Assembly (NCBI GenBank): GCA_049324395.1
Contig: JBMOOY010000056.1
Coordinates: forward strand, 518 to 64,517
Length of the DNA stretch: 64,000 nt
DNA from: Pseudomonadota bacterium
Lineage (GTDB): Bacteria; Pseudomonadota; Gammaproteobacteria; Xanthomonadales; Xanthomonadaceae
Direction of reading: 5' to 3'
The notes beneath the pieces were generated by a model, which saw nothing but the letters and a program-made list of their open reading frames with translations, was not told the DNA's origin and made no database searches. Below, in pieces: positions 3,221 to 46,364 of the stretch. Position numbers and translations under genes: made by a program. Positions within the stretch are counted from its first letter, which is position 1. Each line of letters begins with the position of its first letter.

Positions 3221-3589
3221 CAGGCGATGCAGCAGATGAGACGGCCGCAGGCGTCGGCGGCGCCCCGACATCGTGCGCGACCATCGCGATAGTGCGCGCC
3301 GACCGGGCACCGGGGCATGCGGCGCCGCGATCGGCCCCGCATCCGGCTCACGCCAACCCGACACGGGCACGGGCGCCGCGCCCAGGACGCAGCGCATCTC
3401 CGCCAACGACCTGCAGCCCCGCGCTTCTTCGCCGACCCTGTCGTTCTTTTTGCGATCAGATCCTTGACCGCCGCGTTGTCCAACGCGGTTCCCCGTAGAT
3501 CGCATCAGGGTTGCGTCTAAGGACGTTTCGGTGGTGCGCTGCCGCTTCCGCCAGGGCTGTATGATTCCGATGGGCACAGGGGAGGCTCC

Positions 3590-6500
3590 ATGCGCAGGGA
3601 CGGCGTCGGGACGCAGGGGCGCGTCTTCGGTTGGGTGGTCGGATTGGCGGCGATGTGCGCGAGCGCGCTCGCGGCGCCGACGGCTGCGCGGGTGGAGGTG
3701 TCGTCCGGTCTCGCGCTCGATCCCGCGCCGGAGCCGCGTTTCGTGCGCTTCGGGGCGGAACAGGGGTTGCCTGCGCTCCTCAACGATATGGTGGTCGACC
3801 GGCGCGGCGATCTCTGGCTCGCGACAAGCGACGGGCTCGCGCGCTACGACGGCGACGGGTTCCGGTTCTGGCGTCGCACGATCGGTTCCGATGCGTCCCT
3901 GCAGCAAAACGACGTGATGGCGCTCGCCCTGGACGTCGACGACAGGTTGTGGGTCCTCAACTCGGGTGGGCTCGTGGTGCTCGACCGCGCGCGTCGCGGC
4001 ATCGCGCAGATCGTGTTCGACGGCGAACATGCGGTCTGCGGCCGCGAGATCGCCGCGATGGCGGCCGATCCGGAGGGCGGCGTGCGCATCGGCACCTATG
4101 ATGGCGCCGTGTGCGCGATCGGGCGCGATGGACGCATCCGTCGGCTCCTGCCTGCAGACGGCGGGGCGGGGCTCGGCGCCAGCGCGGTGGTGTTGCGGTC
4201 GCTGCCCGACGGACGCTGGCTGATCGCCACCGATGCGGGCCTGTGGCGTCTGCACGGGACGCGGCTGGAACCGGTCGCGCCGGAGCGCCTCGGCGACGCG
4301 TACGTGTTCGCGATCACCGACGACATCGACGGCGGCCTGTGGATCGGCACCGATCGCGGCCTGTTCGCGATGGCGCAGGACGGCACGATCCGTCCCGCAC
4401 CGTGGCGATTGCCCGAACTGGCGAACAACGCGGTCGTCCGTCGCGATCCGCAGGGGGGTTATTGGATCGGCACCGCCGCCGGACTGTTCCGCGCCGTTTC
4501 GCGCGACGCGCCCGCGTTGCCCGTGCATGGCCGTCGTCACGCCGATGGGCTGAGCAGCGGCGTCTTCGGCATGCTCATCGATCGCGAAGGCGGACTCTGG
4601 GCGGCCTCGTATTCGCAGGGACTGTCGTATCTGCCGCCGGGTCACGCGCGCTTCGCCAGCATCGACGAGATCGACGGCGTGCCGCTGGAGCGCATCGATC
4701 CGGCGGCGGCGATCGGCGACGGCGCGGGCGGTTTCTGGATCGTCGGCAGCCGCAGGCTCTACGCGCTGCCTGCGGGCGCATCGCGACCGCAGGCGGTCGT
4801 CGATGCGAGCGCGCTCGGCGTGGAATGGCTGCTCGCCGCGACCCGATGCGCCGATGGACGCCTGTGGCTGGCCAGCTTCGATCGCGCGTTCGGTTTCGAC
4901 CCGCGTTCGAAGCGCGTCGGACCGACGATCCGTTATCCCGACGACGGATCGCACACGCCGCACTCCCTGTGGTGCGATTCCGCGGGGCGATTGTGGGTCT
5001 CGCTCTACGGCGGCGCCCTGCGCGTGCACGACCGCGATGGCCGGACGCATCGCGCGCTCGCGGCCGAGGCCGTGCTCGGTGGTCCGGTCGCGGATTTCGC
5101 GCGACTCGACGCCGGCCCCGACGGCGTGCCGTGGACCAGAGACGTTCAAGGGTTGCGGCGATGGGACGGTCGTCGCTTCGTTCCGGTCGCGCTGCCCGGG
5201 GGCGAACGCGTGGACGCCTTTGCGTTCGTTGCGCCGCGAACGCTGTGGGTGGCGCGCTACGGCAGTCTCGAACGCTACGAATGGCGCGACGGGCGGGCGC
5301 GGCTGCGCGAACGCATCGACGGCGAAGCGCTGCCCCCGGTGCAGGTCGCCGGCATGCTCGCGTCGGCCGGGCAACTGTGGATGACCACGCCGCGCGGTCT
5401 GCTGCGTTTCGAACCTGCGTCCGGACGCGTGCGGATGTTCGGGGTGCGCGATGGTCTGCCCGACATCGACTTCGCGCTTGGGCCACCGGTGCAGAATGCG
5501 GTCGGGCCTGCGCTCGCCCTCTCCAAGCGCGGCATCGTCCTGTTCGATCCGGGCTTGTCGCTGCCGCCGCCGCGCGCGCCGGCGCTGTCGGTGGAAGCCA
5601 TCGACCTGCGACGCGGCGAAGACACGATCGCGTTCGAGGACGACGGTGCGGCCGTGACGATGCGCCCGGGCGACCGCGATCTGCGGGTGGCCGTGCGTGT
5701 GCGCTCGCTCGCCGATCCCGCCGCGCATCGTTACCGCTTCCGACTGCGCGGTTACGATCCGGACTGGGTCCGCCAGGGCGAGCGCGGCGAACGCGGCGAG
5801 CGCGTGTTCTCGTCGCTGCCGCCGGGTCGCTACGCGCTCGAGTTCCAGGGCGCGGACGCAGACGGCGTGTGGTCGTCGACGTACCGGATTCCGATCCTCG
5901 TCGAAGCGCCTTGGTGGCGACGCTGGTGGGCGCTGCTGCTCTATGCGACGCTCGCATCGGCGCTGGTGTGGTGGCTCGCCTATCTGGATCGCGTGCGCCT
6001 GCGCCGCAATCACAACTACCAGTTGATCAAGCAGAAGCGCGAACTCGCCGAACAGGCGTCGCTGGCGAAGAGCCGGTTCCTCGCCAACCTCGGCCACGAG
6101 ATCCGCACGCCGATGACCGGCGTCCTGGGCATGAGCGAACTGCTGCTGTCGACCCCGCTGGATGCGCGACAGCAGGATCGCATCCATGCGATCCGCCGCG
6201 CCGGCGAGCATCTGCTGCGATTGGTCAACGATGCCCTCGACCTCGCGCGCATCGAGGCCGGGCGCTTCGAACTCGACGAGGCCGATTTCGCGCTCGACGC
6301 CATCGTCGAGGATGTCGTCGGCCTGATGCGGCCGCTCGCGGAACGCAAGGGTCTGCGCTTCGTCGCGACCGTCGACGCCGATGTCCGTGGCGGTTGGCGC
6401 GGCGATCCCACCCGCGTGCGCCAGATCCTGCTGAATCTGCTCGGCAATGCGATCAAGTTCACCGAGCGCGGCGAGGTGTCGCTCGCGATCGCGTCGCTGG

Positions 6501-10337: not shown

Positions 10338-11450
10338 TCAGCCTTCGAGCAGGGTCTCGATCACCGCGTCCTCGGGCACGCCGTCGACGATCCGCGCCGC
10401 CCCCGGCGCTTCCCACAGTACGAAGCGCAGGCCACCCGACAGGGCCTTCTTGTCCAGACGCATGCGCTGGACCAGCGCGTCGGCGTCGAGGCCCGCGGGC
10501 AGGGCGGTGGGGAGCCCGAACGCCGTCAGCAGATCGCGCAGGCGATCCGCATCGGCGGCCGGCGCCATGCCCAGGTGGGCCGAGAGACGGGCCGCGAGCA
10601 CCATGCCGACCGCCACCGCTTCGCCGTGGTTGAGCGCGTTCTCGGCGAAGCGGCCGTAGCCCTGCTCGGCTTCGATCGCGTGGCCGAAGGTGTGGCCGAA
10701 GTTCAGCAGCGCGCGTTCGCCGTATTCGAAGGGGTCGTGCTCGACGATGTTCGCCTTGTGCTGGCAACTGCGGGCGATGGCTTCGACCAGCGGCTCGCGT
10801 TCGCGCGCGAGCAGCGCGGGTGCGTGTTCGCGCAGCCAGCCGAGGAAGGGCGCGTCGACGATGGCGCCGTATTTCACGACTTCCGCGAGGCCCGCGCGCA
10901 GCTCGCGCTCCGGCAGCGAGTCCAGTACGGACGTGTCGGCGAACACCGCGCGCGGCGGATGGAAGGCGCCGACGAGATTCTTGCCCTGCGGCAGGTCGAC
11001 CGCGGTCTTGCCGCCGACCGAGGAATCGACCATCGCCAGCAGCGTGGTGGGCAACTGGATGCAGTCGATGCCGCGCATCCAGCAGGCCGCGGCGAAGCCC
11101 GCGAGGTCGCCGACCACGCCGCCGCCGAGGGCGAGGACGCAGGCGTCGCGAGTGGCGCCGAGCTGGGCCAGCGCGTCCATGACGTCGGAGAAGCGGGCGA
11201 GGGTCTTGGCCTGCTCGCCGGGCGGAATCGCGAACCGCGCCACGCGGAGGTCGGGGCGCACGTTGTGCAGCGCGATCTCCACGCGGCGTGCGTACAGCGG
11301 TGCGACATGCTCGTCGCTGACGATCAGGACGTGGCGTCCGCGGACGCGCGCGATCAGGCTGCTTCCGTCGTCGAGAAGCCCGTCGCCGATGGCGATGGTG
11401 TAGGGATGGGAGCCGCCGATGTGGACGTAGCGCATTGCGGGGGCGGTCAT
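10338..11450 (-). CDS. aroB: 3-dehydroquinate synthase
   Basis: [40 protein letters not shown]. Confidence 0.98.
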
Positions 11451-12019
11451 GTCGGGTCCGGTACGGAGGAAGGGACGGCGGAGCGATGCCGGTGGGCGTC
11501 CAGTCGGTCCGCCAGCATAGCCGCGAGCCGCGCGGCGGATTCGGCCGGAGTCTCGTCGATCGACTCGAAATTCAGGTCGGCGGCGGCTTCGTACAGCGGC
11601 CCCCGTTCCGCGGCCAGGCGACGCAACACCGCTTCGCGATCGTCGCCGGAGATCAGCGGCCGACTGCGATCCCCGGCGAGTCGGGCCAATTGCGTCTCGA
11701 CCGCGATCCGCAGATGGACGACGAAGCCGTGTCGGCGCATGAGCGCGCGGTTCTCCGGGTCCAGTACCGCACCGCCGCCGGTGGCGAGCACGCAGGACGG
11801 TCCGGCCAGGGCCCCGGCCAGCGCCTCGCGTTCGCGACGGCGGAAACCGGCCTCGCCCTCGTGCGCGAAGATCGTCGGGATGTCCGCTCCGGCGCGGAGC
11901 TCGATCTCGCGGTCGAGGTCGACGAACGGTAGATCCCGCAGCGTCGCGAGGCGGCGTCCGAGCGCGCTTTTCCCGGCGCCCATCGGGCCGATCAGGACGA
12001 GGTGGGAGGGCGGCTGCAT
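11447..12019 (-). CDS. aroK: Shikimate kinase
   Basis: [34 protein letters not shown]. Alternative start at 12028. Confidence 0.97.
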
Positions 12020-12090
12020 ATACGTCATCTTAACAGCGCGAGCGTACGCTGCCCTTCCGGCGTCCGCCGGGAATCGTGAGGAAGTCCGCC

Positions 12091-12294
12091 ATGTCCGTCG
12101 CCAAGATCATCGAAATCAACGCCTCGTCCGACGTCGGCTTCGAGGATGCGGTCCGCAGCGGTCTGAAAAAGTGCGCCGAGTCGGTCAAGAACATCAAGGG
12201 CGCCTGGGTCAACGAAACCAAGGTCGTGACCGACGATCACGGCAACGTGACCGAGTGGCGCGTGAACATGCGTGTGAGTTTCGTCGTGCAGTGA
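12091..12294 (+). CDS. Dodecin family flavin-binding protein
   Basis: [25 protein letters not shown]...[12 protein letters not shown]. Confidence 0.92.
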
Positions 12295-12304
12295 TCTCCG
12301 CGGC

Positions 12305-13150
12305 TCAGCCGACGACCCGTCGACGCGCGTCGAGCGCGAGACTGCGTTCGGCGATCCGCGGCAGCGTGCGCAGCGCCTGCCGGCCGACGCGTTCGAAATG
12401 CTGCACGAATCGCGCGATCGCGGCCGGCGTCATGCCGGTCGCGGTCCGCGACGACTGCAGCGCCTTCGCCCGGCGCTCCTGTTCGCGACGCCAGCGCAGT
12501 ACCGGTTCGAAACCGGGCGGCTGCAGCCACAGCAGCCGATCCAGTCGCGACCACAGCGCCGGATAGTCGCGGCCGAGCGCATCGTTGCACCAGCGCCGCC
12601 ACGCGCCGTCCGGGTCTTCGTCGCGCTCCAGCGCGTTGAGCGGCCGCGCCAGCGCCGCCTCGGTTTCCGGCGGGACCTTGAGGCACCAGCCGTCGAACAG
12701 CACGAGATCGGCGGTGCGGCAGGTCGGCCAGCGCGACGGCGGCAGGCGCCGGTCGGCCAGTTTGTCGAATCGCGGCAACCGTACGGCCGCGCCTGCGCGC
12801 AGGGCGTCGAGGGTGTCGAGCGCCAATGCGATCTCGTGCGTGCCCGGCGGCCCGCGCGTGGACAGCAGCGGATGCACGTCCCGCGCCAGCCGCCGTCGTT
12901 CTCGGCGACCGAGATACACGTCGTCGAGCGACAGCGTCGCGACCTGCAGTCCGCGCGTCCGCGCCAGCGCGGCGAGCTGCGCCGCGAGGGTGGACTTGCC
13001 CGACCCCTGCAGGCCGCCGATGGCGTAGACCCGCGCGCCGTGCGCCAGCGCGTCGTCGAGCGCACCGGCGACCACCGCAGCGGCGAACCCGTGCACGGCG
13101 GGGCGAACCGCGCCGGAATTGATCGAAGTCGGGTGCGGAAGCGGAGGCAT
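12305..13150 (-). CDS. P-loop kinase (D-glycerate 3-kinase-like)
   Basis: [36 protein letters not shown]. Start approximate. Confidence 0.82.
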
Positions 13151-13189
13151 CGGGCGACAATACCCCAACGCCAACGTTCGGACCCCGCC

Positions 13190-13786
13190 ATGACGCTCTA
13201 CGCCGAAGCCCTCGCCACGTTCGATGCGCTGTTCGCGCAGGCCCGCGAGGCGGGCATCCCCGAGCCGACCGCGATGACCGTGGCCACCGCCACGTCCGCC
13301 GGGCTGCCCTCGGCGCGCATGGTCCTGCTGAAGGCCCACGACGCGCGCGGCTTCGTGTTCTACACCCATCTCGACGGCCGCAAGGGCCGCGAACTGCAAG
13401 CCAACCCGCAGTGCGCGCTGCTGTTCTTCTGGAAGGCGCTGGGCGAGGACGGCGTGCAGGTGCGCATCGAGGGTGACGTGGAGATCGTCGACGAGGCCGA
13501 AGCCGACGCTTATTTCGCGATGCGCCCGCGCGACAGCCAGCTCGGCGCCTGGGCCTCGCATCAATCGGAGACGCTGGACAGTCGAGAGACCTTCGAGCAG
13601 CGCTTCGCCGAGGCGAAGGCGCGTTTCGAGGGCGTCGACGTCCCGCGCCCGGCGCGCTGGGGCGGCTTCCGCGTGAAACCGCGCAGCATCGAGTTCTGGT
13701 ACGGCGCGCAGTTCCGCCTGCACGAGCGCCATCTGTACGAACGCGGCGCGGACGGCGCGTGGACGAAGCGGATGTTGTATCCGTGA
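13190..13786 (+). CDS. pdxH: Pyridoxamine 5'-phosphate oxidase
   Basis: [44 protein letters not shown]. Confidence 0.97.
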
Positions 13787-14625
13787 GCGTGGCCGACGGC
13801 GTCGGCGCGGGTGTCGGCCCGCGCTCGGGCCCGCGACGCATCGTCTGTCTGACCGAAGAGCCGACCGAGGTGCTGTACGCGCTCGGCGAGCAGCACCGCA
13901 TCGTCGGGATCAGCGGCTTCACCGTGCGTCCGGCGATCGCGCGGAAGGAGAAACCGAAGGTCAGCGCGTTCACCTCGGCGAAGATCGGCGAGATCCTGAA
14001 TCTCGAACCGGATTTCGTCGTCGGGTTTTCCGACATCCAGGCCGACATCGCGTCCGCGCTCATCAGGCACGGCGTCGAGGTGTGGGTGTCGAATCACCGC
14101 AGCGTCGCCGGCATCCTCGACTACGTGCGCCGGCTCGGCGCCCTCGTTGGCGCATCGGAGAAGGCGAACGCGTACGCCGATGCGCTTGCGCGCGGGCTCG
14201 ACGCCATCGCCGCCGAGGCGGCGAGGCTGCCGCGCCGTCCGAAGGTGTATTTCGAGGAATGGGACGAGCCGCAGATCAGCGGCATCCGCTGGGTGTCGGA
14301 ACTGGTCGCGATCGCCGGCGGCGACGACGTCTTTCCGGAGCGCGCGGCCTCCTCGCTGGCGAAGGGGCGCATTCTCGAAGATCCCGGCGAAGTGATCCGC
14401 CGCGCGCCGGATCTCATCCTCGGCTCGTGGTGCGGCAAGAAATTCCGCCCGGAGAAGGTCGCGGCACGCCCGGGCTGGGACGCGATTCCCGCGGTGCGCG
14501 ACGGCGCGCTGCACGAGATCAAGTCGCCGATCATCCTCCAGCCGGGGCCGGCGGCGCTGACCGAAGGCGTGCGCGAGATCGCGCGGATCGTGCGCGAGTG
14601 GTCGCTGCGCGCGGGCGTCAGTTGA
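13783..14625 (+). CDS. BtuF-like (cobalamin/iron-complex) binding protein, no signal peptide
   Basis: [50 protein letters not shown] start overlaps the pdxH stop. Confidence 0.82.
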
Positions 14626-38220: not shown

Positions 38221-39882
38221 TCACTTCAGCGCCTTGAAGCGCAGGCGGTGCGGCTTGGCGCCTTCCTCGCCGAGGCGGCGTTTCTTGTCTTCCTCGTATT
38301 CGCGGTAGTTGCCCTGGAAGAACTCGACGTGCGAGTCGCCTTCGAAGGCCAGGATGTGGGTCGCGATGCGGTCGAGGAACCAGCGGTCGTGCGAGATCAC
38401 GAAGGTGTTGCCGGGGAATTCCAGCAGCGCGTCTTCGAGCGCGCGCAGGGTTTCGATGTCGAGGTCGTTCGACGGTTCGTCGAGCAGAAGCACGTTGCCG
38501 CCCTGCAGCAGGGTCTTGGCGAGGTGCAGGCGACCGCGTTCGCCGCCCGACAGCGAGCCGACCATCTTCTGCTGGTCCTGGCCCTTGAAGTTGAAGCGGC
38601 CGATGTAGGCGCGCGACTGGATCTCGACGCCGTTGATGTTGAGGATGTCGAGGCCGCCGGAGACTTCCTGGAAGACGTTGTGGTTGCCTTCGAGCTTGTC
38701 GCGGCTCTGGTCGACGTAGGCCAGCTTCACCGTCGGACCCTTGACGATCTCGCCCTTGTCCGGCTTCTCGATGCCCATGAGCATCTTGAACAGCGTCGAC
38801 TTGCCGGCGCCGTTGGGGCCAATGATGCCGACGATCGCGCCCGGCGGCACCAGCATGTTGAGGTTGTCGATCAGCAGGCGGTCGCCGAACGACTTCGACA
38901 CGCCCTTGAACTCGATCACCGAGTTGCCCAGGCGCTCGCCCGGCGGGATGAAGATTTCGTTGGTCTCGTTGCGGCGCTGGTATTCCTGCGACTGCAGTTC
39001 TTCCAGGCGAGCGAGACGCGCCTTGCCCTTGCTGCGGCCGCCCTTGGCGTTCTGGCGCGACCACTCCAGTTCGCGCGCGATCGCCTTCTGGCGCGCCTTC
39101 TCCTGGTTTTCTTCCTGCTTCAGGCGCTCGTCCTTCTGGACCAGCCATTCGGTGTAATTGCCCTTCCACGGAATGCCGCGGCCGCGGTCGAGTTCGAGGA
39201 TCCACTCGGCGGCGTTGTCGAGGAAGTAGCGGTCGTGGGTGACCGCGACCACGGTGCCCGGGAAGCGGGCGAGGAACTGTTCCAGCCACTCCACCGACTC
39301 GGCGTCGAGATGGTTGGTCGGTTCGTCCAGCAGCAGCATGTCCGGCTTGCTCAGCAGCAGGCGGCAGAGCGCGACGCGGCGCTTTTCGCCGCCGGAGAGC
39401 GTGGAGATCTTCGCGTCCCACGGCGGCAGGCGCAGGGCGTCCGCGGCCACTTCCAGCTGCTGTTCCAGCATGTGCGCGTCGCCGGAGGCGAGGATCGCTT
39501 CGAGACGCTGCTGTTCTGCGGCGAGCTTGTCGAAGTCGGCGCCTTCCTCGGCGTAGGCGGCGTAGACCGCGTCCAGCGCGGCCTGGGCCTGGAGGACCTC
39601 GCCGACGCCTTCCTCGACCGATTCGCGCACGGTCTTGTTCGGATCGAGTTCGGGCTCCTGCGCCAGGTAGCCGACCTTGATGCCCGGTTGCGGGCGGGCT
39701 TCGCCCTGGAAGTCCTTGTCGACGCCGGCCATGATCTTCAGCACGGTCGACTTGCCGGCGCCGTTCAGGCCGAGCAGGCCGATCTTCGCGCCGGGGAAGA
39801 AGGACAGCGAGATGTCCTTGATGATCTGGCGCTTCGGCGGCACGGTCTTGCTGACGCCGTTCATGGTGTAGATGTATTGCAT
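38221..39882 (-). CDS. ettA: Energy-dependent translational throttle protein (ABC-F)
   Basis: MQYIYTMNGVSK, two ABC domains (GLNGAGKST; GPNGAGKST), FQGNYREYEEDKKRR. Confidence 0.98.
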   Translation of the reverse strand: MQYIYTMNGVSKTVPPKRQIIKDISLSFFPGAKIGLLGLNGAGKSTVLKIMAGVDKDFQGEARPQPGIKVGYLAQEPELDPNKTVRESVEEGVGEVLQAQAALDAVYAAYAEEGADFDKLAAEQQRLEAILASGDAHMLEQQLEVAADALRLPPWDAKISTLSGGEKRRVALCRLLLSKPDMLLLDEPTNHLDAESVEWLEQFLARFPGTVVAVTHDRYFLDNAAEWILELDRGRGIPWKGNYTEWLVQKDERLKQEENQEKARQKAIARELEWSRQNAKGGRSKGKARLARLEELQSQEYQRRNETNEIFIPPGERLGNSVIEFKGVSKSFGDRLLIDNLNMLVPPGAIVGIIGPNGAGKSTLFKMLMGIEKPDKGEIVKGPTVKLAYVDQSRDKLEGNHNVFQEVSGGLDILNINGVEIQSRAYIGRFNFKGQDQQKMVGSLSGGERGRLHLAKTLLQGGNVLLLDEPSNDLDIETLRALEDALLEFPGNTFVISHDRWFLDRIATHILAFEGDSHVEFFQGNYREYEEDKKRRLGEEGAKPHRLRFKALK

Positions 39883-40147
39883 GGGGGCTCCGGTCGTGCG
39901 CGGCGCACGATGTCGGGACAGCGGCGGCCGCGGGTGCGGACGGCGAAGGCCTGCCGTTGGGAGAGCAGGGGCCGTCGGGGATTCGGGGAATGGCGGAATT
40001 ATCGCCGATCCCGTCGGAGCCGTCACGTCGCAGGGGTGCGGCCGTAGGGCCGCGGAGGCCGGTCGACGGCATCGTCGAGGGAATAAATCCCTGCGGCGCT
40101 TCGTTCTCTCGTCCACACCGGCGCGCAGGGCGCCGAGGAGACGATGG

Positions 40148-41275
40148 ATGGCGACCGTGCCCCGGCAGCGAATGTTCGACCCGACCTCCAGCGACCACGG
40201 CCTCCGGCCGGGCACCGGCCCCGCCTCGGGGACGATCGGCGGGTCCGACCGCGGATTCGCCCGCCTGGAGGCGGCCAAGCGCGGGTTCTGCCTGCGTCGG
40301 GTCGACGTGCGGGTGGCGACCCTGCTCGGTCGGCAATATGCGCCCGAGGCGGGCAGCCTGTTCCTGGCGCGGGTGACCGAGCTGGGCCACCACACCCGGA
40401 TCGAATTGCCCGACGGCCGGCGCGCGCGCCTCTTCGCGGGCGACGAGGTGGTGGCCTGCTACGGCCACCGCTATGCGCCCGACCAGTACGGCATCCGGGT
40501 GCCGGAGCACATGCAACGCTGCGCGCTGGCGACCAGCGGCGGCGTGGCGGGCGAACTGGAAAGCCGGCACGACGCCGTGGGCAGGCCGACGATGCTGCAA
40601 CCGATCGGCATGCTCGGCGATCTGTCGGGCGCGCCGTTGAATCTGACGCGCTTCGCGCTGCCTCCGGTCGAGCGCTGTCCGGTGCAGGTGCCGGTGTTCG
40701 CGGTGCTGGGTTCGAGCATGAATTCCGGCAAGACCACCACCGCCGCCTGCACGGTACGCGGTCTGACCAACGCCGGCATGCGCGTGGCCGCGGCCAAGAT
40801 CACCGGCACCGGATCGGGCGCGGATTACTGGCACATGCTCGACGCCGGCGCGATCGCGGTGCGGGATTTCAGCGATTGCGGCCTGCCATCCACCTTTCGC
40901 GTCGATCTGCAGACCTTGCAGCGCACGTTCTTCACGCTGCTTTCGGAGCTGCAGCGAAGCGCGCCGGACGCGATCGTGATCGAGATCTCCGATGGCCTGT
41001 TCCAGCGCGAGACCGCGATGATGGTGGCCGCGCCCTGGTTCCGCGACGCGGTCGACAAGGTGCTGCTGGCGGCGCCGGACGCGATGGCGCTGGCGACCGG
41101 CGTCGAGATCCTCCGCCGTCACGCGCTTTCGGTGGCCGCCCTGAGCGGGCTGGTCAGCCGCAGTCCGCTGGCGATGCAGGAGGCGGCGGAACAGACGGGC
41201 CTGCGCGTGCTGGACATCGCCGGCCTCGAAAGCCCGGAGATCGTCACGCCGCTGCTGTTCTCGCTCGGCCGCTGA
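40148..41275 (+). CDS. DUF1611-like P-loop protein
   Basis: LGHHTRIELPDGRRARLFAGDEVVACYGHRYAPDQY, Walker A GSSMNSGKTT, AAKITGTG, IVIEISDGLFQRET. Alternative start at 40172. Confidence 0.8.
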   Translation: MATVPRQRMFDPTSSDHGLRPGTGPASGTIGGSDRGFARLEAAKRGFCLRRVDVRVATLLGRQYAPEAGSLFLARVTELGHHTRIELPDGRRARLFAGDEVVACYGHRYAPDQYGIRVPEHMQRCALATSGGVAGELESRHDAVGRPTMLQPIGMLGDLSGAPLNLTRFALPPVERCPVQVPVFAVLGSSMNSGKTTTAACTVRGLTNAGMRVAAAKITGTGSGADYWHMLDAGAIAVRDFSDCGLPSTFRVDLQTLQRTFFTLLSELQRSAPDAIVIEISDGLFQRETAMMVAAPWFRDAVDKVLLAAPDAMALATGVEILRRHALSVAALSGLVSRSPLAMQEAAEQTGLRVLDIAGLESPEIVTPLLFSLGR

Positions 41276-41282
41276 GGTCGAC

Positions 41283-42926
41283 GTGGACGGCTTCCCCGCG
41301 CTCTTCGCAGGCCGGCGACGAACGTTGCTGCTGCGCCTGATCGCCAACGGCGTCGGCCAGGGCGCCGTCGCAGGCGCGTTCGCACTGGGACTGCGCGACG
41401 TGCTGGACGGCGATGCGGGCCTTTCGTTGCCGGTCGTCGTGGCGCTCTGGGGATCGGTGTTGGCGACCGGTACGCTGCGCTGGCTGGAGCGGGTCGATGC
41501 GGAGCGCCTCGGGCAGTCGTACATCGACCGCATCCGCCTGCGCCTGTTCGACCATCTGGGGCGGGTCGCCCCCGAGCGACTGCGTCGCATCCGCCATGGC
41601 GCGCTGTCGCTGCGGTTCGTGGGCGATCTCTCGGCGCTGCGGCTGTGGGCCAGTCGCGGGCTGGCGCGCGTGTGGACGGCCGGCGCGATGACGCTGGGCG
41701 TCGTCGCGGTGCTCGCGTGGCTGGACTGGCGCTTCGCGTGCGCGGCCGGCGGCGTGCTCGCGCTCGGCGCGCTCGCCGCGTACGTCGGCGCCGGCGCGCT
41801 GGACGCTTCGGTGCGCAGGGCGCGCAGACGCCGCGGACGCTTCGCCGCGGCGATCGACGAGCAGTTGTCGCGACTGCCGACGATCCAGGCCTATGCGCGT
41901 CGCGACGCCGAAAAGGCGGCGATCGTCGAACGCTCGCGTCGCGTGCGCCGCGCCGCGGTGGCGCTGGCGCATCGTTCCGGCCTCATGATCGCGATTTCCG
42001 CGACCGTCGTCGGCACGTCGACCTTGTCGGTCGCGCTGATCGGTCATTCCGATGCGACGCATTCCCGCGGCACGCTGCTGGCGGCGCTGCTGCTGGTGTC
42101 GCTGCTGGCGACGCCCCTGCATCGCCTGGGACGGGTGTTCGAACTGTGGCGTTCGGCGATCGTGGCCCGGGAAAAAGTGCGTTCGCTGCTCGAGATCGCG
42201 CCGCTGGCGAGCCCCGGCGCGGAGGTCGCGCCGCTGCCGAAGGGCCCGGGTGCGATCGAATTCGCGCAGGTCGCGATTCCGGGATGCCCGACGCCGCTCG
42301 ATGCCGTCGTGGCGCCGGGCGAGCGCGTGCTGATCGCCTCCGATCCCGGCATCGAGGCGTCGCTGTTGCTGTGGGCGTTGCCGCGGCTGACCGATGCGGT
42401 GACCGGAACGATCCGCATCGACGGACGCGACATCGCGGAAGCCGCGCCCGGTTCGCTGCGACGCGCGGCGGTCCTGGTCAGCGAGAGCCTGCCGCTGCTG
42501 CGGGGCAGCCTGATCGACAATCTGCGCTACCGCGCGCCGGGCGCGCGTCTCGACGAGATCGATCGCATCCTGGATCGCTGCGGGCTGCGCGAGGCCGTCG
42601 AGCGAATGCCGCGCGGACTCGAAACGCCGCTCGGCAGCGATGGATTCGGGCTCGCGCGCGCGGAGCGCTGGCGTCTGCGCTGGGCGCGGGCGTTGCTCGG
42701 GCGGCCGCGGATCCTGCTGTTCGAGGACGTCGACGCGCAGATCCAGGGCGAGAACCGCGATGCCTTCTTCGCGATGCTGGAACGGTTCCGCGGCACCGTG
42801 CTGATGACCGGGCGCGACGGCGCCGACTGGCCGCGCACGATCCGGCGGTGGCGGTTGTCGACGGCCGCTCCGATGCGGGCGGGCGGGAGCTCCCCGGCGA
42901 CCCTTCTCGAAAGGCACGGCACATGA
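41283..42926 (+). CDS. ABC exporter-type fused TMD-NBD protein with degenerate ATPase motifs
   Basis: ABC TM domain (RIRLRLFDHL, LRFVGDL) followed by NBD scaffold (GTIRIDG, LIDNLRY, ARALL..P.ILL), but Walker A, signature, Walker B and H-switch are altered. Confidence 0.85.
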   Translation: MDGFPALFAGRRRTLLLRLIANGVGQGAVAGAFALGLRDVLDGDAGLSLPVVVALWGSVLATGTLRWLERVDAERLGQSYIDRIRLRLFDHLGRVAPERLRRIRHGALSLRFVGDLSALRLWASRGLARVWTAGAMTLGVVAVLAWLDWRFACAAGGVLALGALAAYVGAGALDASVRRARRRRGRFAAAIDEQLSRLPTIQAYARRDAEKAAIVERSRRVRRAAVALAHRSGLMIAISATVVGTSTLSVALIGHSDATHSRGTLLAALLLVSLLATPLHRLGRVFELWRSAIVAREKVRSLLEIAPLASPGAEVAPLPKGPGAIEFAQVAIPGCPTPLDAVVAPGERVLIASDPGIEASLLLWALPRLTDAVTGTIRIDGRDIAEAAPGSLRRAAVLVSESLPLLRGSLIDNLRYRAPGARLDEIDRILDRCGLREAVERMPRGLETPLGSDGFGLARAERWRLRWARALLGRPRILLFEDVDAQIQGENRDAFFAMLERFRGTVLMTGRDGADWPRTIRRWRLSTAAPMRAGGSSPATLLERHGT

Positions 42927-43816
42927 GCGAAACCATCCTCCTTCCGAAGCCGGCGGGCCGCGGGACGCATCCCTACGCGAGAACGCCGGACGGAATTCCC
43001 GAGTGCAGTTACTTCGTCCATCGTCCGCAGGGCGAGCACGACCGCAGCCGGCTGCTGGTCGCGGTGCACGGCATCACCCGCAACGCGCTCGAACACGCGA
43101 TGGTGTTCCGTCGCTGGTCGGAACGACTGGGCGTCGCGGTGGTCGCGCCGTTGTTCCCGCGCGCGGGGTATCGGCGCTACCAGACCCTCGAAGGCCGCAG
43201 GGGCATCCCGGCCGCGGACGAGGCCTTCGACCGCATCGTCGAAGACGCGTGCCGTCATCTGGGAATGGATGCGCCGGCCCTGCATCTGTTCGGATATTCC
43301 GGCGGCGGACAGTTCGCGCACCGTTACGCGTTCCGCCATCCGCGCGCGGTGTCGCGGATGGTCGTGGGCGCAGCGGGTTGGTACACGTTCCCGGACGACG
43401 ATCTCGCCTACCCGCTGGGCCTCGGTGCGCGCGGCGCGACGTCGGCGTTCGCGCACGCCGACGTCGTCGCGCGGTATCCGCCGACGCTGGTGGTGGTCGG
43501 TTCGCACGACCGCATGCGCGACGAGTCGCTCAACCAGGACCCCGACATCGACCTGCGTCAGGGCCTGCACCGCCGCGCCCGCGCGCGGCGATGGGTCGAC
43601 GCGATGGCGGGCGCGGCGCGGCGCGCGGGCTGCGCGTCGCCCTGCCGCCTGCACGTGCTGCGCGGCGCGAGCCATGCGTTCGGCCCTTCCGTTCGCAGCC
43701 ACGCCCTCGACCGCATCGTGGTCGGCTTCCTGTTTCCGGATGCCGACCTCGGCGCAGGCGATGCGCCGTGCGCCGAGGACGCACTCCTTCCCCGATCCCC
43801 CGGAGCATCGAAATGA
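42923..43816 (+). CDS. Alpha/beta hydrolase (esterase/depolymerase-like)
   Basis: VAVHG, nucleophile elbow GYSGG(GQFAHRY), late His in ASHAF. No signal peptide. Confidence 0.85.
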
Positions 43817-44994
43817 AGACTTCCCTGACGAGACTCTCCCTGCCCGTGGCGCTGGCGTGCCTGACCCCCGTGGCCGCGCAGGCCCAAGCCTTCGAGGCCG
43901 GCCGCGAGGGCCTGGTCTGGACCTCGGACGACGGCGACAGCGAACTGCGCATCGGCTGCCGCCTGCATTACGACAGCGTGCGTTTCGACGAGGACGTCAC
44001 GCCGCTCGACGACCGCAGCGATTTCCGTCGCGCCAGGATCGCGCTGTCCGGACGATTCGCGAAGGACTGGCGTTTCCGGGTCGAGAACGATCTCGGCGGC
44101 ACGTCGCAGGGCTGGAAAGGCGTGTGGTTGGCCTATCGCGGTTTCGACGACTGGGACCTGCGCGCGGGCCACCTGATCGCCCCGGTCGGCATGGAGCAAT
44201 CGATGAGCTCGGACGAGATGCCGCTGATGGAGCGTTCGCTGTCCTCCGCGCTGTCGCCCGGGTTCCTGGTCGGCGCGCAGGGCACCTACGCCCGCAAGGG
44301 CTGGACCGCGACGCTCGGCTATTACGGGGACCCGATCGACGGCGAACAGGACGCGTCCGGACAGGACGGGCGCGGATTCGCCGGACGTGCGACCTGGGCG
44401 CCGTTGCGCGGGAAGGGGCGGGTGGTGCATCTGGGCGCGTCCTTCGAGCAGCGCCGGGTCGATCCGGTCGCCGCGCCGGGCGGGTATCGGATTTCGTCCC
44501 GTCCCGGCGCGGGTCTGGCCAACGCTTCGCTGATCAATACCGGCGCCATCGCCGGCGTCGATCGCACGCGGACGATCGGCGTCGAAGCGGGCGTCGTGCT
44601 CGGTCCGGTCTCGGTGCTGGGCGAGGGCATGCGGATGACGGTCGCGCGCAGCGGCGCGCCGGATGCCGACTTCAGGGGCGGACACGTCACCGCGGCATGG
44701 GCGCTGACCGGCGAATCGCGGCGATACAACGAGGACACCGGCGTCATCGGCGGTCTCCGGCCGTCGCGACGCTGGGGCGCGCTGGAACTGGCGGCCCGCT
44801 ACGAGCGCCTCGACCTCGAAGACGCGGGCATCACCGGCGGCAGCGAGCGCAATCTGGCCTATGGCCTGAACTGGTACTTCGGACGCAATTTCCGGCTGAT
44901 GCTGAACCACGTCGATGCCGAAGCCGACCCGAACCGGAACGGGGTCCGGGAGTCGGTGGGAATCGACCAGATCCGGGCCCAGGTCGACTTCTGA
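43813..44994 (+). CDS. OprO/OprP-family anion-selective porin
   Basis: Signal peptide, [30 protein letters not shown], terminal aromatic (QVDF). Confidence 0.88.
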
Positions 44995-45113: not shown

Positions 45114-46364
45114 ATGTTCCCGCGCGATGCCCGCATCGAAGGTTTCGACCCCGAACTCGCCGCCGCCATCGCGGCCGAAGACCGCCGCCAGGAAGACCAC
45201 GTCGAGCTGATCGCGTCCGAAAACTACGCCAGTCCGCGGGTCATGGAAGCGCAGGGCAGCCAGCTGACCAACAAGTACGCGGAGGGGTATCCGGGCAAGC
45301 GCTACTACGGCGGCTGCGAGTACGTCGACATCGCGGAGCAGCTGGCGATCGAGCGCGTCAAGACGCTGTTCGGCGCGGACTACGCCAACGTCCAGCCGCA
45401 TTCGGGCTCGCAGGCCAACCAGGCGGTGTATTTCGCGCTGCTGCAGCCGGGCGACACCATTCTCGGCATGTCGTTGGCGCACGGCGGCCATCTCACCCAT
45501 GGCGCCAAGGTCAACGCCTCGGGCAAGCTCTTCAACGCCGTGCAGTACGGCGTGAACGACCAGGGTCTGATCGACTACGACGAAGTCGAACGACTGGCCC
45601 TGGAGCACAAGCCGAAGATGGTCGTCGCCGGCTTTTCGGCGTATTCGCAGGTCGTCGACTGGGCGCGCTTCCGCGCCATCGCCGACAAGGTCGGCGCGTA
45701 TCTCTTCGTCGACATGGCGCACGTGGCCGGGCTGGTCGCCGCCGGCGTCTATCCGAATCCCGTGCCCTACGCCGACATCGTGACCTCGACCACCCACAAG
45801 ACCCTGCGCGGCCCGCGCGGCGGGATCATCGTCGCCCGCGCCAACGAGGAGATCGAGAAGAAACTGCAGAGCATCGTCTTCCCGGGCATCCAGGGCGGTC
45901 CGCTGATGCACGTCATCGCCGCGAAGGCGGTCGCCTTCCTCGAAGCGCTGCAGCCGGAGTTCAAGGTCTACCAGGCGCAGGTGGTGAAGAACGCGCAGGC
46001 GATGGCGAACGCGATCATCGCCCGCGGTTACAAGATCGTCTCCGGCGGTACCCAGAACCACCTGATGCTGGTCGACATGATCGGCAAGGGCATCACCGGC
46101 AAGGACGCGGAAGCCGCGCTCGGTCGCGCCCACATCACCGTGAACAAGAACGCGGTGCCGAACGATCCGCAGAAGCCGTTCGTGACCTCGGGCCTGCGCC
46201 TGGGCACGCCTGCGGTGACCACCCGCGGCTACCTCGAACAGGACTGCGTCGATCTGGCGAACTGGATCTGCGACGTGCTCGACGCGCCGAAGGACGAGGC
46301 GGTGATCGCCCGGGTGAAGGCGAACGTCGAGGCGCAGTGCCGGAAGTACCCGGTGTACGGCTGA
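45114..46364 (+). CDS. glyA: Serine hydroxymethyltransferase
   Basis: [44 protein letters not shown]. Confidence 0.99.

Follow-up and report, generated by a model that had tools for sequence, protein, structure and literature searches.

DgcN, which acts in D-glutamate N-acetylation and which we take to be a DUF1611 protein, is to our knowledge the only characterised member of that family, with a catabolic role, and a DgcN-DgcA pathway exists in the literature. The N-terminal domain of DUF1611 proteins is an alpha/beta domain. Among ABC proteins, CFTR has turned into an ATP-gated anion channel that carries out no ATP-driven pumping, and SbmA is a transporter that has no NBD. For the polyaspartate hydrolases of the PahZ1 type, we know of no natural substrate that has been identified. 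Hydrolysis of tPAA by PahZ1KT-1 requires R246, and Brevifollis has a PahZ1 domain in fusion with CapA (PMC13017698). The same paper names no natural substrate for PahZ1, nor does it mention an operon or gene cluster (PMC13017698).

A four-gene cassette between ettA and glyA

The window, that is, the whole 64-kb stretch of DNA that was analysed, originates from a biofilm metagenome. In the interval between ettA (38221-39882, minus strand) and glyA (45114-46364, plus strand), the four co-oriented ORFs of the preliminary description, here termed g1 to g4, were all found where it had placed them and with the spacing it had reported. The first, g1 (40148-41275, plus strand; 375 aa), carries a GAGGAG ribosome-binding site 7-12 nt upstream of its start codon, which is kept among relatives. 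It is followed after a 7-bp gap by g2 (41283-42926, plus strand; 547 aa), which begins with GTG, while g3 (42923-43816, plus strand; 297 aa) and g4 (43813-44994, plus strand; 393 aa) each overlap the preceding gene by ATGA. The core four-gene span contains no further gene, such as a second ABC half or glycosyltransferases, and a scan of the 64-kb window for cyanophycin-synthetase-like, PGA_cap, S8 and ECF genes gave no match. Apart from g1, nothing in the window is an obvious candidate for supplying monomers or for polymerising them.

All four ORFs are intact in a relative of 93% identity, with the same spacing as in the window, and in one of 73% identity, with the same order and short gaps. 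Purifying selection acts on each of the four genes (dN/dS 0.12-0.37). A Lysobacteraceae relative (L082) carries g1 alone at the ettA-glyA site, having lost g2-g4. PADLOC gave no anti-phage defence match, and Rfam no riboswitch or leader RNA upstream of g1 in the window and seven further loci; a sub-threshold Rfam sRNA match at 44911-44991 was taken as chance. A RiPP precursor or other small ORF upstream of g1 was also rejected: conservation of the ettA-g1 spacer is not that of a coding sequence, since indels break the frame. The conserved blocks in this spacer are instead the ettA promoter, an ECF-sigma motif and the ribosome-binding site.

The ECF motif qualifies the earlier statement that the cassette has no regulator. 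While no regulatory gene is adjacent, an ECF-sigma-type promoter, GGAATAAATCCCTGCGGCGCTTCGTT, lies upstream of g1 (40080-40105, plus strand; -35 GGAATA, -10 CGTT), and it is the sole match to GGAATA-N14-17-CGTT in the 64-kb window, where 0.07 would be expected. The motif is conserved upstream of g1 in related loci (L081-L085). The cognate ECF sigma gene is not in the 64-kb window; loci that do have an adjacent ECF sigma gene show the same motif before g1, the sigma gene itself, an S8 peptidase gene and an Asp hydroxylase gene. A secreted S8 peptidase is co-regulated through this motif in 13 loci, and the ECF regulon in related loci also takes in outer-membrane barrels and a protease. A sigma-54 promoter was considered for the Rhodocyclaceae loci and rejected, as only one weak match was obtained.

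The cassette is a conserved unit that recurs across phyla, as had been proposed. In a survey of 85 loci (for GTDB, the best 80 of about 550), g2 adjoins g1 homologues in 77, g3 in 61 and g4 in 31, and the g1-g2-g3-g4 arrangement is far above chance. The median gap between g1 and g2 is about 2 nt, and translational coupling is almost always present. The g1 family comprises about 680 representative clusters at E≤1e-30, with carriers among Proteobacteria, Cyanobacteria, Actinomycetota, Desulfobacterota, Bdellovibrionota and Acidobacteriota. Fusions link the genes further: g1-g3 in P0149 and P0186, the reverse order g3-g1 in P0227 (within an AspHyd - g3::g1 - g2 operon, L086), and REC-g1 in P0125 (L087). 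The one g2-g3 fusion (L035) comes from a single MAG and might be an assembly frameshift. Two classes of long g1 were set aside: those with C-terminal extensions (P0137, P0144, P0255) are Mutator-transposase junctions and not functional fusions, and those with N-terminal extensions, in which the extensions scanned hold no Pfam domain, probably reflect wrong start calls in GC-rich DNA. Pairs of g1 and g3 without g2 also occur (L028, L032, L048, L071, L075), and g1, which stands alone in L082, may function independently of transport. In the literature searched, "DUF1611" appeared only in two unrelated papers and none of those found described the cassette, in agreement with the earlier claim that it matches no characterised pathway.

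Domains and motif states of the four proteins

An AF2 model divides g1 into a disordered segment (residues 1-32), a beta-rich N-domain (about 33-171) and a SIMIBI-class P-loop domain (about 179-375), with a pLDDT of 88.9 for the full protein and 95.7 for the N-domain alone. The P-loop GSSMNSGKTT was confirmed to be intact (40709-40738, plus strand). It follows the extended pattern G-[TS]-x4-GK-x-T, and 83 of the 85 rows of the g1 alignment show either GTSMNAGKTT or a near variant that keeps the GK[TS] core. In fold and in the length of this loop (G-x5-GK-T-T), the C-domain resembles DUF1611 proteins (2G0T, 2OBN), MobB (2F1R) and BioD, and with MobB it further shares a K..G..GxDxW..AGA segment. 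Foldseek matched the C-domain to DTBS, SRP GTPases, DUF1611 and HypB, with dethiobiotin synthetase as the best hit (E 2.5e-7), while the best hit of a profile search of g1 against the PDB was MobB (2f1r).

Despite this likeness, g1 falls below the gathering score of each of the corresponding Pfam models. Against DUF1611 (PF07755) it scores 13.6 bits (E 0.045; gathering cut-off 25), and it matches MobB, AAA_26 and CbiA about as well, all at sub-threshold level; 21 of 23 g1 family members likewise match DUF1611 only below threshold. The N-domain is beta-rich, unlike that of DUF1611. It had no Pfam match and, by Foldseek, no fold match in the PDB (best hit trypanothione synthetase, E 0.25, TM 0.24), and only the C-domain of g1 aligns to 2obn and 2g0t. 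Across homologues, the N-domain nevertheless contains many invariant polar residues. The description of g1 as DUF1611-like therefore applies loosely to its P-loop domain and does not make it a bona fide PF07755 member. Because of the sub-threshold score, the equal matches to MobB, AAA_26 and CbiA and the different N-domain fold, the apparent link to DgcN is weak. The ligand of g1 could be an NTP, or CoA as in DgcN.

PGAP labels g1 homologues as "DUF1611 domain-containing protein" or "dethiobiotin synthase". More remote homologues, full-length and at 27-31% identity, occur in Bacillaceae plasmid clusters alongside a gene of the PEP-mutase family and genes for a TPP-dependent enzyme, ATP-grasp proteins, a carbamoyltransferase and an MFS transporter. 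As read from the PGAP product names, these clusters look like natural-product biosynthesis clusters.

Like the type-IV exporters CydDC and MsbA, g2, a half-transporter, combines an ABC_membrane TMD (PF00664, 3.7e-17, residues 19-277), whose hydrophobic segments fit six helices, with a C-terminal NBD-like domain that matches ABC_tran weakly (5e-6). The nearest NCBIfam models are CydC/CydD/MsbA-like and fall below their cut-offs (MsbA, 5e-33). Unlike in those exporters, all four ATPase motifs are lost when set against the consensus of 69 homologues: the Walker A equivalent (42336-42362) reads ASDPGIEAS in place of GPNGAGKS, the signature (42651-42674) LARAERWR in place of LSxGQRQR, Walker B (42711-42737) ILLFEDVDA in place of LLLDEADA, and the H-loop (42801-42818) MTGR in place of VTH, all on the plus strand. 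A presumed homodimer would thus have no functional site, yet the domain is still under selection, as the dN/dS of the pseudo-NBD (0.21 and 0.35) is similar to that of the g2 TMD. The preliminary description of g2 as an ATPase-dead ABC exporter holds for this lineage and not for the family, in which 42 of the 69 homologues have fully intact NBD motifs; the g2 of Aromatoleum is an example with an intact NBD. Decay of the NBD recurs in at least four clades, as counted on a rough NJ tree, with the operon kept intact.

By sequence, g3 is related to the poly(aspartate) hydrolase PahZ1. It is an alpha/beta hydrolase with a triad of S126 (GYSGG), D196 and H251, and its matches in the PDB are LpqC (3d0k, 2.8e-18) and PahZ1 (6ve6, 1.8e-14). 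The triad aligns with S157 and D225 of PahZ1KT-1 and with the His of 3d0k, and g3 shares with PahZ1 (6VE6, 9O7U) and LpqC (3D0K) the fold, the GxSxG nucleophile and an AGWYTxPD motif. Its resemblance to both PahZ1 and LpqC, the latter an LpqC-type "PHB depolymerase" esterase, is distant (E 1e-14 to 1e-18). The PahZ1 likeness extends to the QGxxR arginine, which in PahZ1KT-1 (R246, QGVHR) positions the polyanionic substrate and aligns with R217 (QGLHR) of g3; the equivalent arginine is kept in at least 90% of 61 homologues, in which the triad is also conserved. PahZ1 enzymes are periplasmic, whereas no signal peptide was found in g3, and g3 is fused to cytoplasmic partners elsewhere. With its Ser-Asp-His triad, g3 thus matches the cytoplasmic serine hydrolase that had been described.

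The last protein, g4, is a clear member of the Porin_O_P family (PF07396, 1.3e-65) with a Sec signal peptide at about 43813-43890. It aligns with the phosphate- and pyrophosphate-selective porins OprO (4rjx) and OprP (2o4v) along most of the barrel, although at only about 25% identity, and the central phosphate-binding lysines of OprP, K121 and K126, are replaced by Q and D. The family assignment as an OprO/P-type channel therefore stands, while selectivity of the phosphate type is not implied.

A possible route for a small acidic compound and its alternatives

Genes found near the core in other genomes offer a hint as to the chemistry. In Bdellovibrionales loci, g1, g2 and g3 lie amid split genes that resemble cyanophycin synthetase (E 1e-126 to 1e-140), PGA_cap genes lie downstream of g3 in Actinomycetota loci, and a gene for an Asp/Asn beta-hydroxylase stands inside the operon in at least six loci. 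Each is a minority neighbour (2, 7 and 6 of the 85 loci, respectively, with the best 80 of about 550 GTDB loci surveyed) and could be a lineage-specific add-on. Together with the S8 protease, they point to acidic peptide or poly-amino-acid chemistry. These neighbours and the PahZ1 likeness of g3 are in keeping with the anionic metabolite or polymer proposed earlier. The long-polymer form of that proposal fares less well, since the narrow porin argues for a small product.

We tentatively favour, at somewhat short of even chances, a reading in which the cassette makes, edits and releases a small acidic compound derived from amino acids, most likely an Asp/Glu-type amide or isopeptide. The four genes would form one ECF-sigma-controlled envelope module, with g1 and g3 as cytoplasmic enzymes at the inner face of the ABC-type membrane protein g2. 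A P-loop enzyme of the BioD/MobB/DUF1611 group, g1 would depend on a nucleotide, bind its substrate through a beta domain of its own and ligate or activate the compound, and g3, a serine hydrolase of the PahZ1/LpqC type whose arginine would position a carboxylate, might then cleave or release it. The compound would be carried over the inner membrane by g2 and leave through the g4 porin in the outer membrane. Since all of its ATPase motifs are lost, passage in this lineage could not be driven by ATP hydrolysis in g2; efflux of an anion down the membrane potential would suffice without an ATPase, and the pseudo-NBD may persist as a platform for dimerisation or for the docking of g1 and g3. A more specific form of this reading, in which g1 represents a new class of BioD/MobB-like P-loop enzyme that forms amides and makes a short Asp/Glu oligomer with beta or gamma linkages, or else a related polycarboxylate, edited by g3, and in which g2 has repeatedly become an ATP-independent anion conduit, is a long shot.

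The direction of transport bears on the principal alternative, namely uptake and catabolism. An anionic oligomer, such as beta-Asp or gamma-Glu peptides made extracellularly by the co-regulated S8 protease, would enter through g4, be imported by g2 and cleaved by g3, and then be phosphorylated, acylated or ligated by g1. The degradative nature of PahZ1 relatives would fit such a route, as would the placement of the secreted peptidase under the same ECF motif, the usual role of porins in uptake and the catabolic role of DgcN. Moreover, proteins with a type-IV ABC fold may serve import as well, and transport through a porin can run either way. However, the exporter fold of g2, its nearest models and the absence of a substrate-binding protein among the recurrent neighbours in the 85 loci favour export. 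The recurrent death of the NBD is also easier to tolerate with downhill anion efflux than with uptake, in which uphill import against the membrane potential would lack a drive of its own, and the REC-g1 fusions and the homologues in biosynthetic-looking clusters fit synthesis better. Uptake and catabolism is thus considered unlikely.

Alternatively, g1 might be an NTPase that energises or gates g2, in the manner of ArsA for ArsB or of a BY-kinase for a polymer exporter, in which case the ABC NBD would be free to decay because g1 energises g2. Nearly every locus, dead NBD or not, retains the Walker A motif of g1, the two genes are almost always coupled in translation, and the SIMIBI class does include ATPases with membrane partners. 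Yet most family members keep an intact NBD alongside g1, which is difficult to reconcile with such a motor, as are the g1-g3 pairs without g2, the solitary g1 of L082, the g1-g3 fusions in both orders and the distant homologues in soluble biosynthetic-looking clusters. A motor function is accordingly judged quite improbable.

The presence of sensor proteins near the cassette raises the possibility of a signal loop, in which g1 would make an exported, autoinducer-like signal that is degraded by g3, released by g2 and g4 and sensed by adjacent histidine kinases or anti-sigma factors. Sensor kinases adjoin the core in 23 of the 85 loci (best 80 of about 550 GTDB loci); in a cyanobacterial locus (L016), a CHASE3 kinase gene (12691-14103) abuts the end of g2 (11036-12691), and Rhodocyclaceae show the order g1-g2-g3-HK-RR. 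The REC-g1 fusions resemble REC-GGDEF logic, and pairs of synthetase and hydrolase are typical of messengers. Regulators adjacent to an operon, however, usually just regulate it, and the window has no linked sensor, which leaves a signal loop very unlikely.

Less likely again is envelope-lipid remodelling, in which an MsbA-like flippase would act with a lipase or esterase, joined in some genomes by an LpxO/OlsC-like hydroxylase, all under ECF control of the envelope-stress kind. The MsbA resemblance of g2, the outer-membrane barrels and protease of the ECF regulon, and PF05118, which includes bacterial lipid hydroxylases, would all be consistent with it. Against this, the closest characterised relatives of g3 cleave polyanionic amides and g3 keeps their arginine, neither the cyanophycin-synthetase-like nor the PGA_cap neighbours belong to lipid metabolism, and a narrow porin would have no role for lipids. 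Finally, although the NBD is dead and L082 lost g2-g4 at the same site, it is highly improbable that the cassette is a decaying, functionless remnant, given the intact ORFs with conserved spacing and order in the two relatives, the selection that extends to the pseudo-NBD, and the conserved promoter and ribosome-binding site.

Relation to known poly-amino-acid systems

Were the favoured reading correct, a widespread cassette that carries no functional annotation would become a tractable target, and its ECF-sigma regulon would be a defined one that could be switched on experimentally in culturable carriers, among which are Novosphingobium taihuense CGMCC 1.3432, Aromatoleum tolulyticum ATCC 51758 and Paracoccus albus p1. 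It would contain a P-loop enzyme of a new, two-domain kind whose N-domain fold has no match, offer a plausible physiological context for the PahZ1-type polyaspartate hydrolases, and show, as an experiment of nature, an ABC exporter that loses its ATPase time and again and yet stays under selection. Should g1 in addition form amides, a natural source of "polyaspartate-like" compounds would be revealed, and with it a natural substrate of the PahZ1 type.

The cassette can finally be compared with the cyanophycin (CphA/CphB) and poly-gamma-glutamate (PgsBCA/CapA) systems, which it would resemble in that a synthetase and a dedicated hydrolase, at times together with export, serve an acidic poly-amino acid. 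In some phyla, genes of the cyanophycin-synthetase-like and CapA-like kinds adjoin g1, g2 and g3. Unlike those systems, the window lacks genes for ATP-grasp, Mur-ligase and CapA proteins. Were the chemistry of the same kind as for cyanophycin or poly-gamma-glutamate, g1 would have to supply the synthetase role by a different fold.

Gene layout and occurrence

The four co-oriented genes lie exactly where the preliminary description placed them, in a region of ~70% G+C flanked by ettA (38221-39882, minus strand) and glyA (45114-46364, plus strand). All are on the plus strand: g1, which encodes the P-loop protein (40148-41275; 375 aa); g2, the ABC protein (41283-42926; 547 aa), which begins with GTG 7 bp past the g1 stop codon; and g3, the serine hydrolase (42923-43816; 297 aa), and g4, the porin (43813-44994; 393 aa), each joined to the preceding gene by an ATGA overlap. 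The g1 start codon is preceded by a GAGGAG ribosome-binding site, and relatives of 93% and 73% identity keep both the ATG and the site. Within the 3' end of g4 (44911-44991), the Rfam model of the Rhizobiales sRNA Atu_Ti1 is matched at 28.6 bits (E 0.22), short of its gathering score of 55, most likely by chance.

With each GTDB species represented by one genome, a scan returned 554 relatives of g1; the best 80 of these 554 loci were kept and, with five fetched by protein look-up, form an 85-locus set. Within it, 77 loci have a g2 homologue beside g1, 61 have g3 and 31 have g4, which is confined to Gram-negative lineages; the g1-g2 junction is usually a start/stop overlap (median gap ~2 nt). 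Carriers include Rhodocyclaceae, Methylococcales, sphingomonads, Caulobacterales, Nitrosomonas, Desulfobacterales, Bdellovibrionales, Acidobacteriota, Actinomycetota and cyanobacteria, and a g1 profile recovered 679 members, at E<=1e-30, from a set of 1.84 billion representative proteins. The genes thus do co-occur elsewhere, and the preliminary description is not refuted on this count.

Fusions link the same genes. g1 is fused to g3 in proteins P0149 and P0186 and in the reverse order in P0227, the operon in locus L086 reading Asp/Asn-hydroxylase, g3::g1, g2; the occurrence of both orders argues that g1 and g3 act on the same molecule. A g2-g3 fusion is found in one Desulfobacterales MAG (L035), and a receiver domain is fused to g1 in P0125 (followed by g2, in L087) and P0256. 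Since g1-g3 pairs occur without g2 (L028, L032, L048, L071, L075) and g1-g2 pairs without g3 (cyanobacteria and some Actinomycetota), g1 is the hub of the cassette. Several g1 genes (P0137, P0144, P0255 and hit H5 on a Microvirga ossetica plasmid) run into Mutator-family transposase sequence, and in some genomes IS elements are inserted just past g1. In a Lysobacteraceae MAG (L082; g1 56% identical), g1 stands alone (545-1597) at the same ettA-glyA site, where g2-g4 are absent and the promoter motif discussed below lies at 313-337; in closer relatives the four genes are all kept.

Promoter and regulators

The cassette had been described as having no regulator, and no regulator gene adjoins it; it does, however, carry a conserved ECF-sigma-type promoter motif at 40080-40105 on the plus strand (GGAATAAATCCCTGCGGCGCTTCGTT), 43 bp upstream of the g1 start. 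This is the sole match to GGAATA-N14-17-CGTT, the -35/-10 pattern, in the 64-kb window (0.07 expected), and the motif is kept upstream of g1 in L081-L085. Some loci have an ECF sigma/anti-sigma pair next to the cassette, and there the motif precedes g1, the sigma gene, the S8 peptidase gene, the hydroxylase gene and the gene for an outer-membrane barrel with a Ser/Gly/Asp-rich loop. Because the window shares its motif with these loci and holds no ECF sigma gene, its operon most likely depends on an ECF sigma encoded elsewhere in the genome. Other lineages have two-component systems in place of the ECF sigma: 23 of the 85 loci carry a histidine kinase, and NtrC-, OmpR- or NarL-type regulators also occur.

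The barrel, a weak Phenol_MetA_deg match with a long Ser/Gly/Asp-rich low-complexity insert, lies at 8756-9817 in L031, 8776-9825 in L050 and 4063-4950 in L081, and in at least nine further loci; it is absent from the window. The motif lies upstream of it in L031, L033, L050 and L081. The divergent ettA has a sigma-70-like promoter (GTGACG-17-GATAAT; 39998-40026, minus strand) within the block of spacer sequence between ettA and g1 that L083 and L085 conserve.

The P-loop protein and its ABC partner

The P-loop of g1, GSSMNSGKTT, is intact. The preliminary label "DUF1611-like" agrees with the PGAP name of g1 homologues, but the match to DUF1611_C (E 0.045) reaches 13.6 bits against a cut-off of 25, and the other Pfam/NCBIfam hit, MobB (E 0.009), is likewise sub-threshold. 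Across 23 family members, MobB, DUF1611_C, AAA_26 (BioD-like) and CbiA are matched about equally, all below threshold. In an AlphaFold2 model (pLDDT 88.9), the N-terminus is disordered and is followed by a beta-rich domain (~residues 33-171) and then by a P-loop domain of the SIMIBI class. The closest PDB fold to the modelled P-loop domain is dethiobiotin synthetase (E 2.5e-7), followed by SRP GTPases, the DUF1611 structures 2obn and 2g0t, HypB, MinD and CTP synthase; the sequence profile instead finds MobB 2f1r first, in an alignment reaching beyond the P-loop into a conserved K..TGTGSGGDxW..DAGA segment. The N-domain, when modelled separately, is predicted with very high confidence (pLDDT 95.7), yet no fold in the PDB matches it (best E 0.25, TM <0.25). 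Together, the sub-threshold matches and this N-domain place g1 in a distinct family.

The g2 protein matches ABC_membrane (3.7e-17), its nearest NCBIfam models (CydC, CydD, MsbA) all falling far under their cut-offs, and is a half-transporter of the type-IV ABC exporter fold. Its ATPase domain (NBD) has lost Walker A, signature, Walker B and H-loop, which bears out the earlier reading of the window protein as ATPase-dead. All four motifs are intact in 42 of 69 g2 homologues, so NBD death is not a family trait. It is common to the window, L083 (93% relative) and L085 (73%), is partial in L081 (58%), and recurs, wholly or partly, in sphingomonads, L069, L039, the Vibrio nigripulchritudo/Motiliproteus group and Bordetella petrii, amounting to at least four clades in a rough NJ tree. 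The dN/dS of the pseudo-NBD (0.21 against L083, 0.35 against L085) is similar to that of the transmembrane domain (0.14 and 0.38), so the pseudo-NBD is not drifting.

The putative product and its route

As previously claimed, g3 is a serine hydrolase; it is of the alpha/beta type and has no signal peptide. Among solved structures it comes nearest to the LpqC-type esterase 3d0k (2.8e-18) and the poly(aspartic acid) hydrolases PahZ1 (6ve6, 1.8e-14; 9o7u, 1.3e-9); since a sphingomonad g3 gives the same matches, the family is a distant relative of PahZ1 and not an orthologue. In the alignment, S126, D196 and H251 fall on the PahZ1 triad and R217 on the substrate-positioning R246 of PahZ1KT-1, mutation of which impairs polyaspartate hydrolysis about as much as that of the catalytic Ser or Asp (PMC13017698).

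Apart from regulators, all recurrent neighbours of the cassette encode peptide or poly-amino-acid enzymes. In Bdellovibrionales, split cyanophycin-synthetase-like genes encode an M-domain protein (3.7e-135), whose gene overlaps the g2 start, and N+G-domain proteins (1e-126 to 1e-140). CapA/PGA_cap genes occur in 7 of the 85 loci, where those of Actinomycetota come immediately behind g3 and those of Bdellovibrionales close to it, and a PahZ1 homologue fused to CapA has been published (PMC13017698). Six of the 85 loci have a PF05118 Asp/Asn beta-hydroxylase gene within or beside the operon, as does the later-fetched L086, and a secreted S8 peptidase occurs in 13 loci. None of these four gene types is present in the 64-kb window. 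Taken with the arginine of g3, these neighbours point to a product that may be an acidic Asp/Glu-type amide or isopeptide compound.

In the Bdellovibrionales MAGs L049 (1887-19817) and L051, translation of the M-domain protein is coupled to that of the ABC gene, the N+G-domain protein is present in two copies, two uncharacterised proteins are duplicated, and a CapA/PGA_cap protein and another g3-like hydrolase are also encoded. On plasmid p1 of Paracoccus albus (L089), an HTTM-domain gene (vitamin-K-dependent gamma-carboxylase-like), a single occurrence of another acidic-residue-modifying gene, and a DUF393 gene (3338-5206) lie ~1.4 kb upstream of a g3-g1-g2 operon, with a small hypothetical gene between. 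DUF6502 proteins recur near the cassette in eight loci (L030, L038 and L045 among them) and in L086 (9321-12269), there flanked by a PG_binding_1 and a DUF5666 protein.

These observations can be accommodated, tentatively, by a general scheme of making or editing and export. The nucleotide-dependent enzyme g1 and the hydrolase g3 would work as a make/edit pair at the cytoplasmic side of g2, which would carry a small acidic product derived from amino acids into the periplasm, g4 providing its way across the outer membrane. Linkage, fusions, motif states, folds and promoter are shown, whereas the direction of transport, the class of substrate, the chemistry of g1 and the source of energy are inferred. 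On bioenergetic grounds, recurrent loss of the ABC ATPase while the operon stays intact would be most easily tolerated if the substrate were an anion whose exit from the cell follows the membrane potential downhill. An unlikely alternative is that acidic oligopeptides are taken up and catabolised, with transport in the opposite direction. That g1 is instead the NTPase energising g2 is less probable: distant full-length homologues (27-31% identity) lie in clusters on plasmids of Priestia megaterium (L090, 3760-12448) and Bacillus paranthracis (L091, 1784-10107) annotated with a PEP-mutase-family protein, a TPP-dependent enzyme, ATP-grasp proteins, a carbamoyltransferase (whose gene overlaps the g1-like gene in L091), an MFS transporter and, in one of the two, an M20 peptidase. 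These look like small-molecule biosynthesis clusters of phosphonate-type natural-product appearance, which favours g1 as an enzyme and not merely a motor. An exported-signal loop seems more doubtful again, and remodelling of envelope lipids a shade more so. A decaying remnant is very improbable given a dN/dS of 0.12-0.37 across the four window genes, indicative of purifying selection, and the cassette is not a pseudogene array.

No characterised pathway was found to match the cassette, in line with the preliminary description: full-text searches found no published account of it, "DUF1611" returned two unrelated papers only, and no mention was found in the cyanophycin and PahZ1 literature. The cassette is rated as a biosynthesis/processing-plus-export operon with every part drawn from known superfamilies, and two features are unusual, namely a P-loop enzyme whose N-domain lacks a PDB fold match and an ABC partner that is repeatedly ATPase-dead. 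While the P-loop domain of g1 resembles 2obn and 2g0t, its N-domain matches neither; PahZ1 enzymes are periplasmic (PMC13017698), unlike the leaderless g3. Finally, g4 carries a Sec signal peptide and, as proposed, clearly belongs to the Porin_O_P family (1.3e-65). Its identity to OprO and OprP is ~25%, but K121 and K126 of OprP are replaced by Q and D, and therefore the phosphate-type selectivity first ascribed to such porins should not be assumed for g4.
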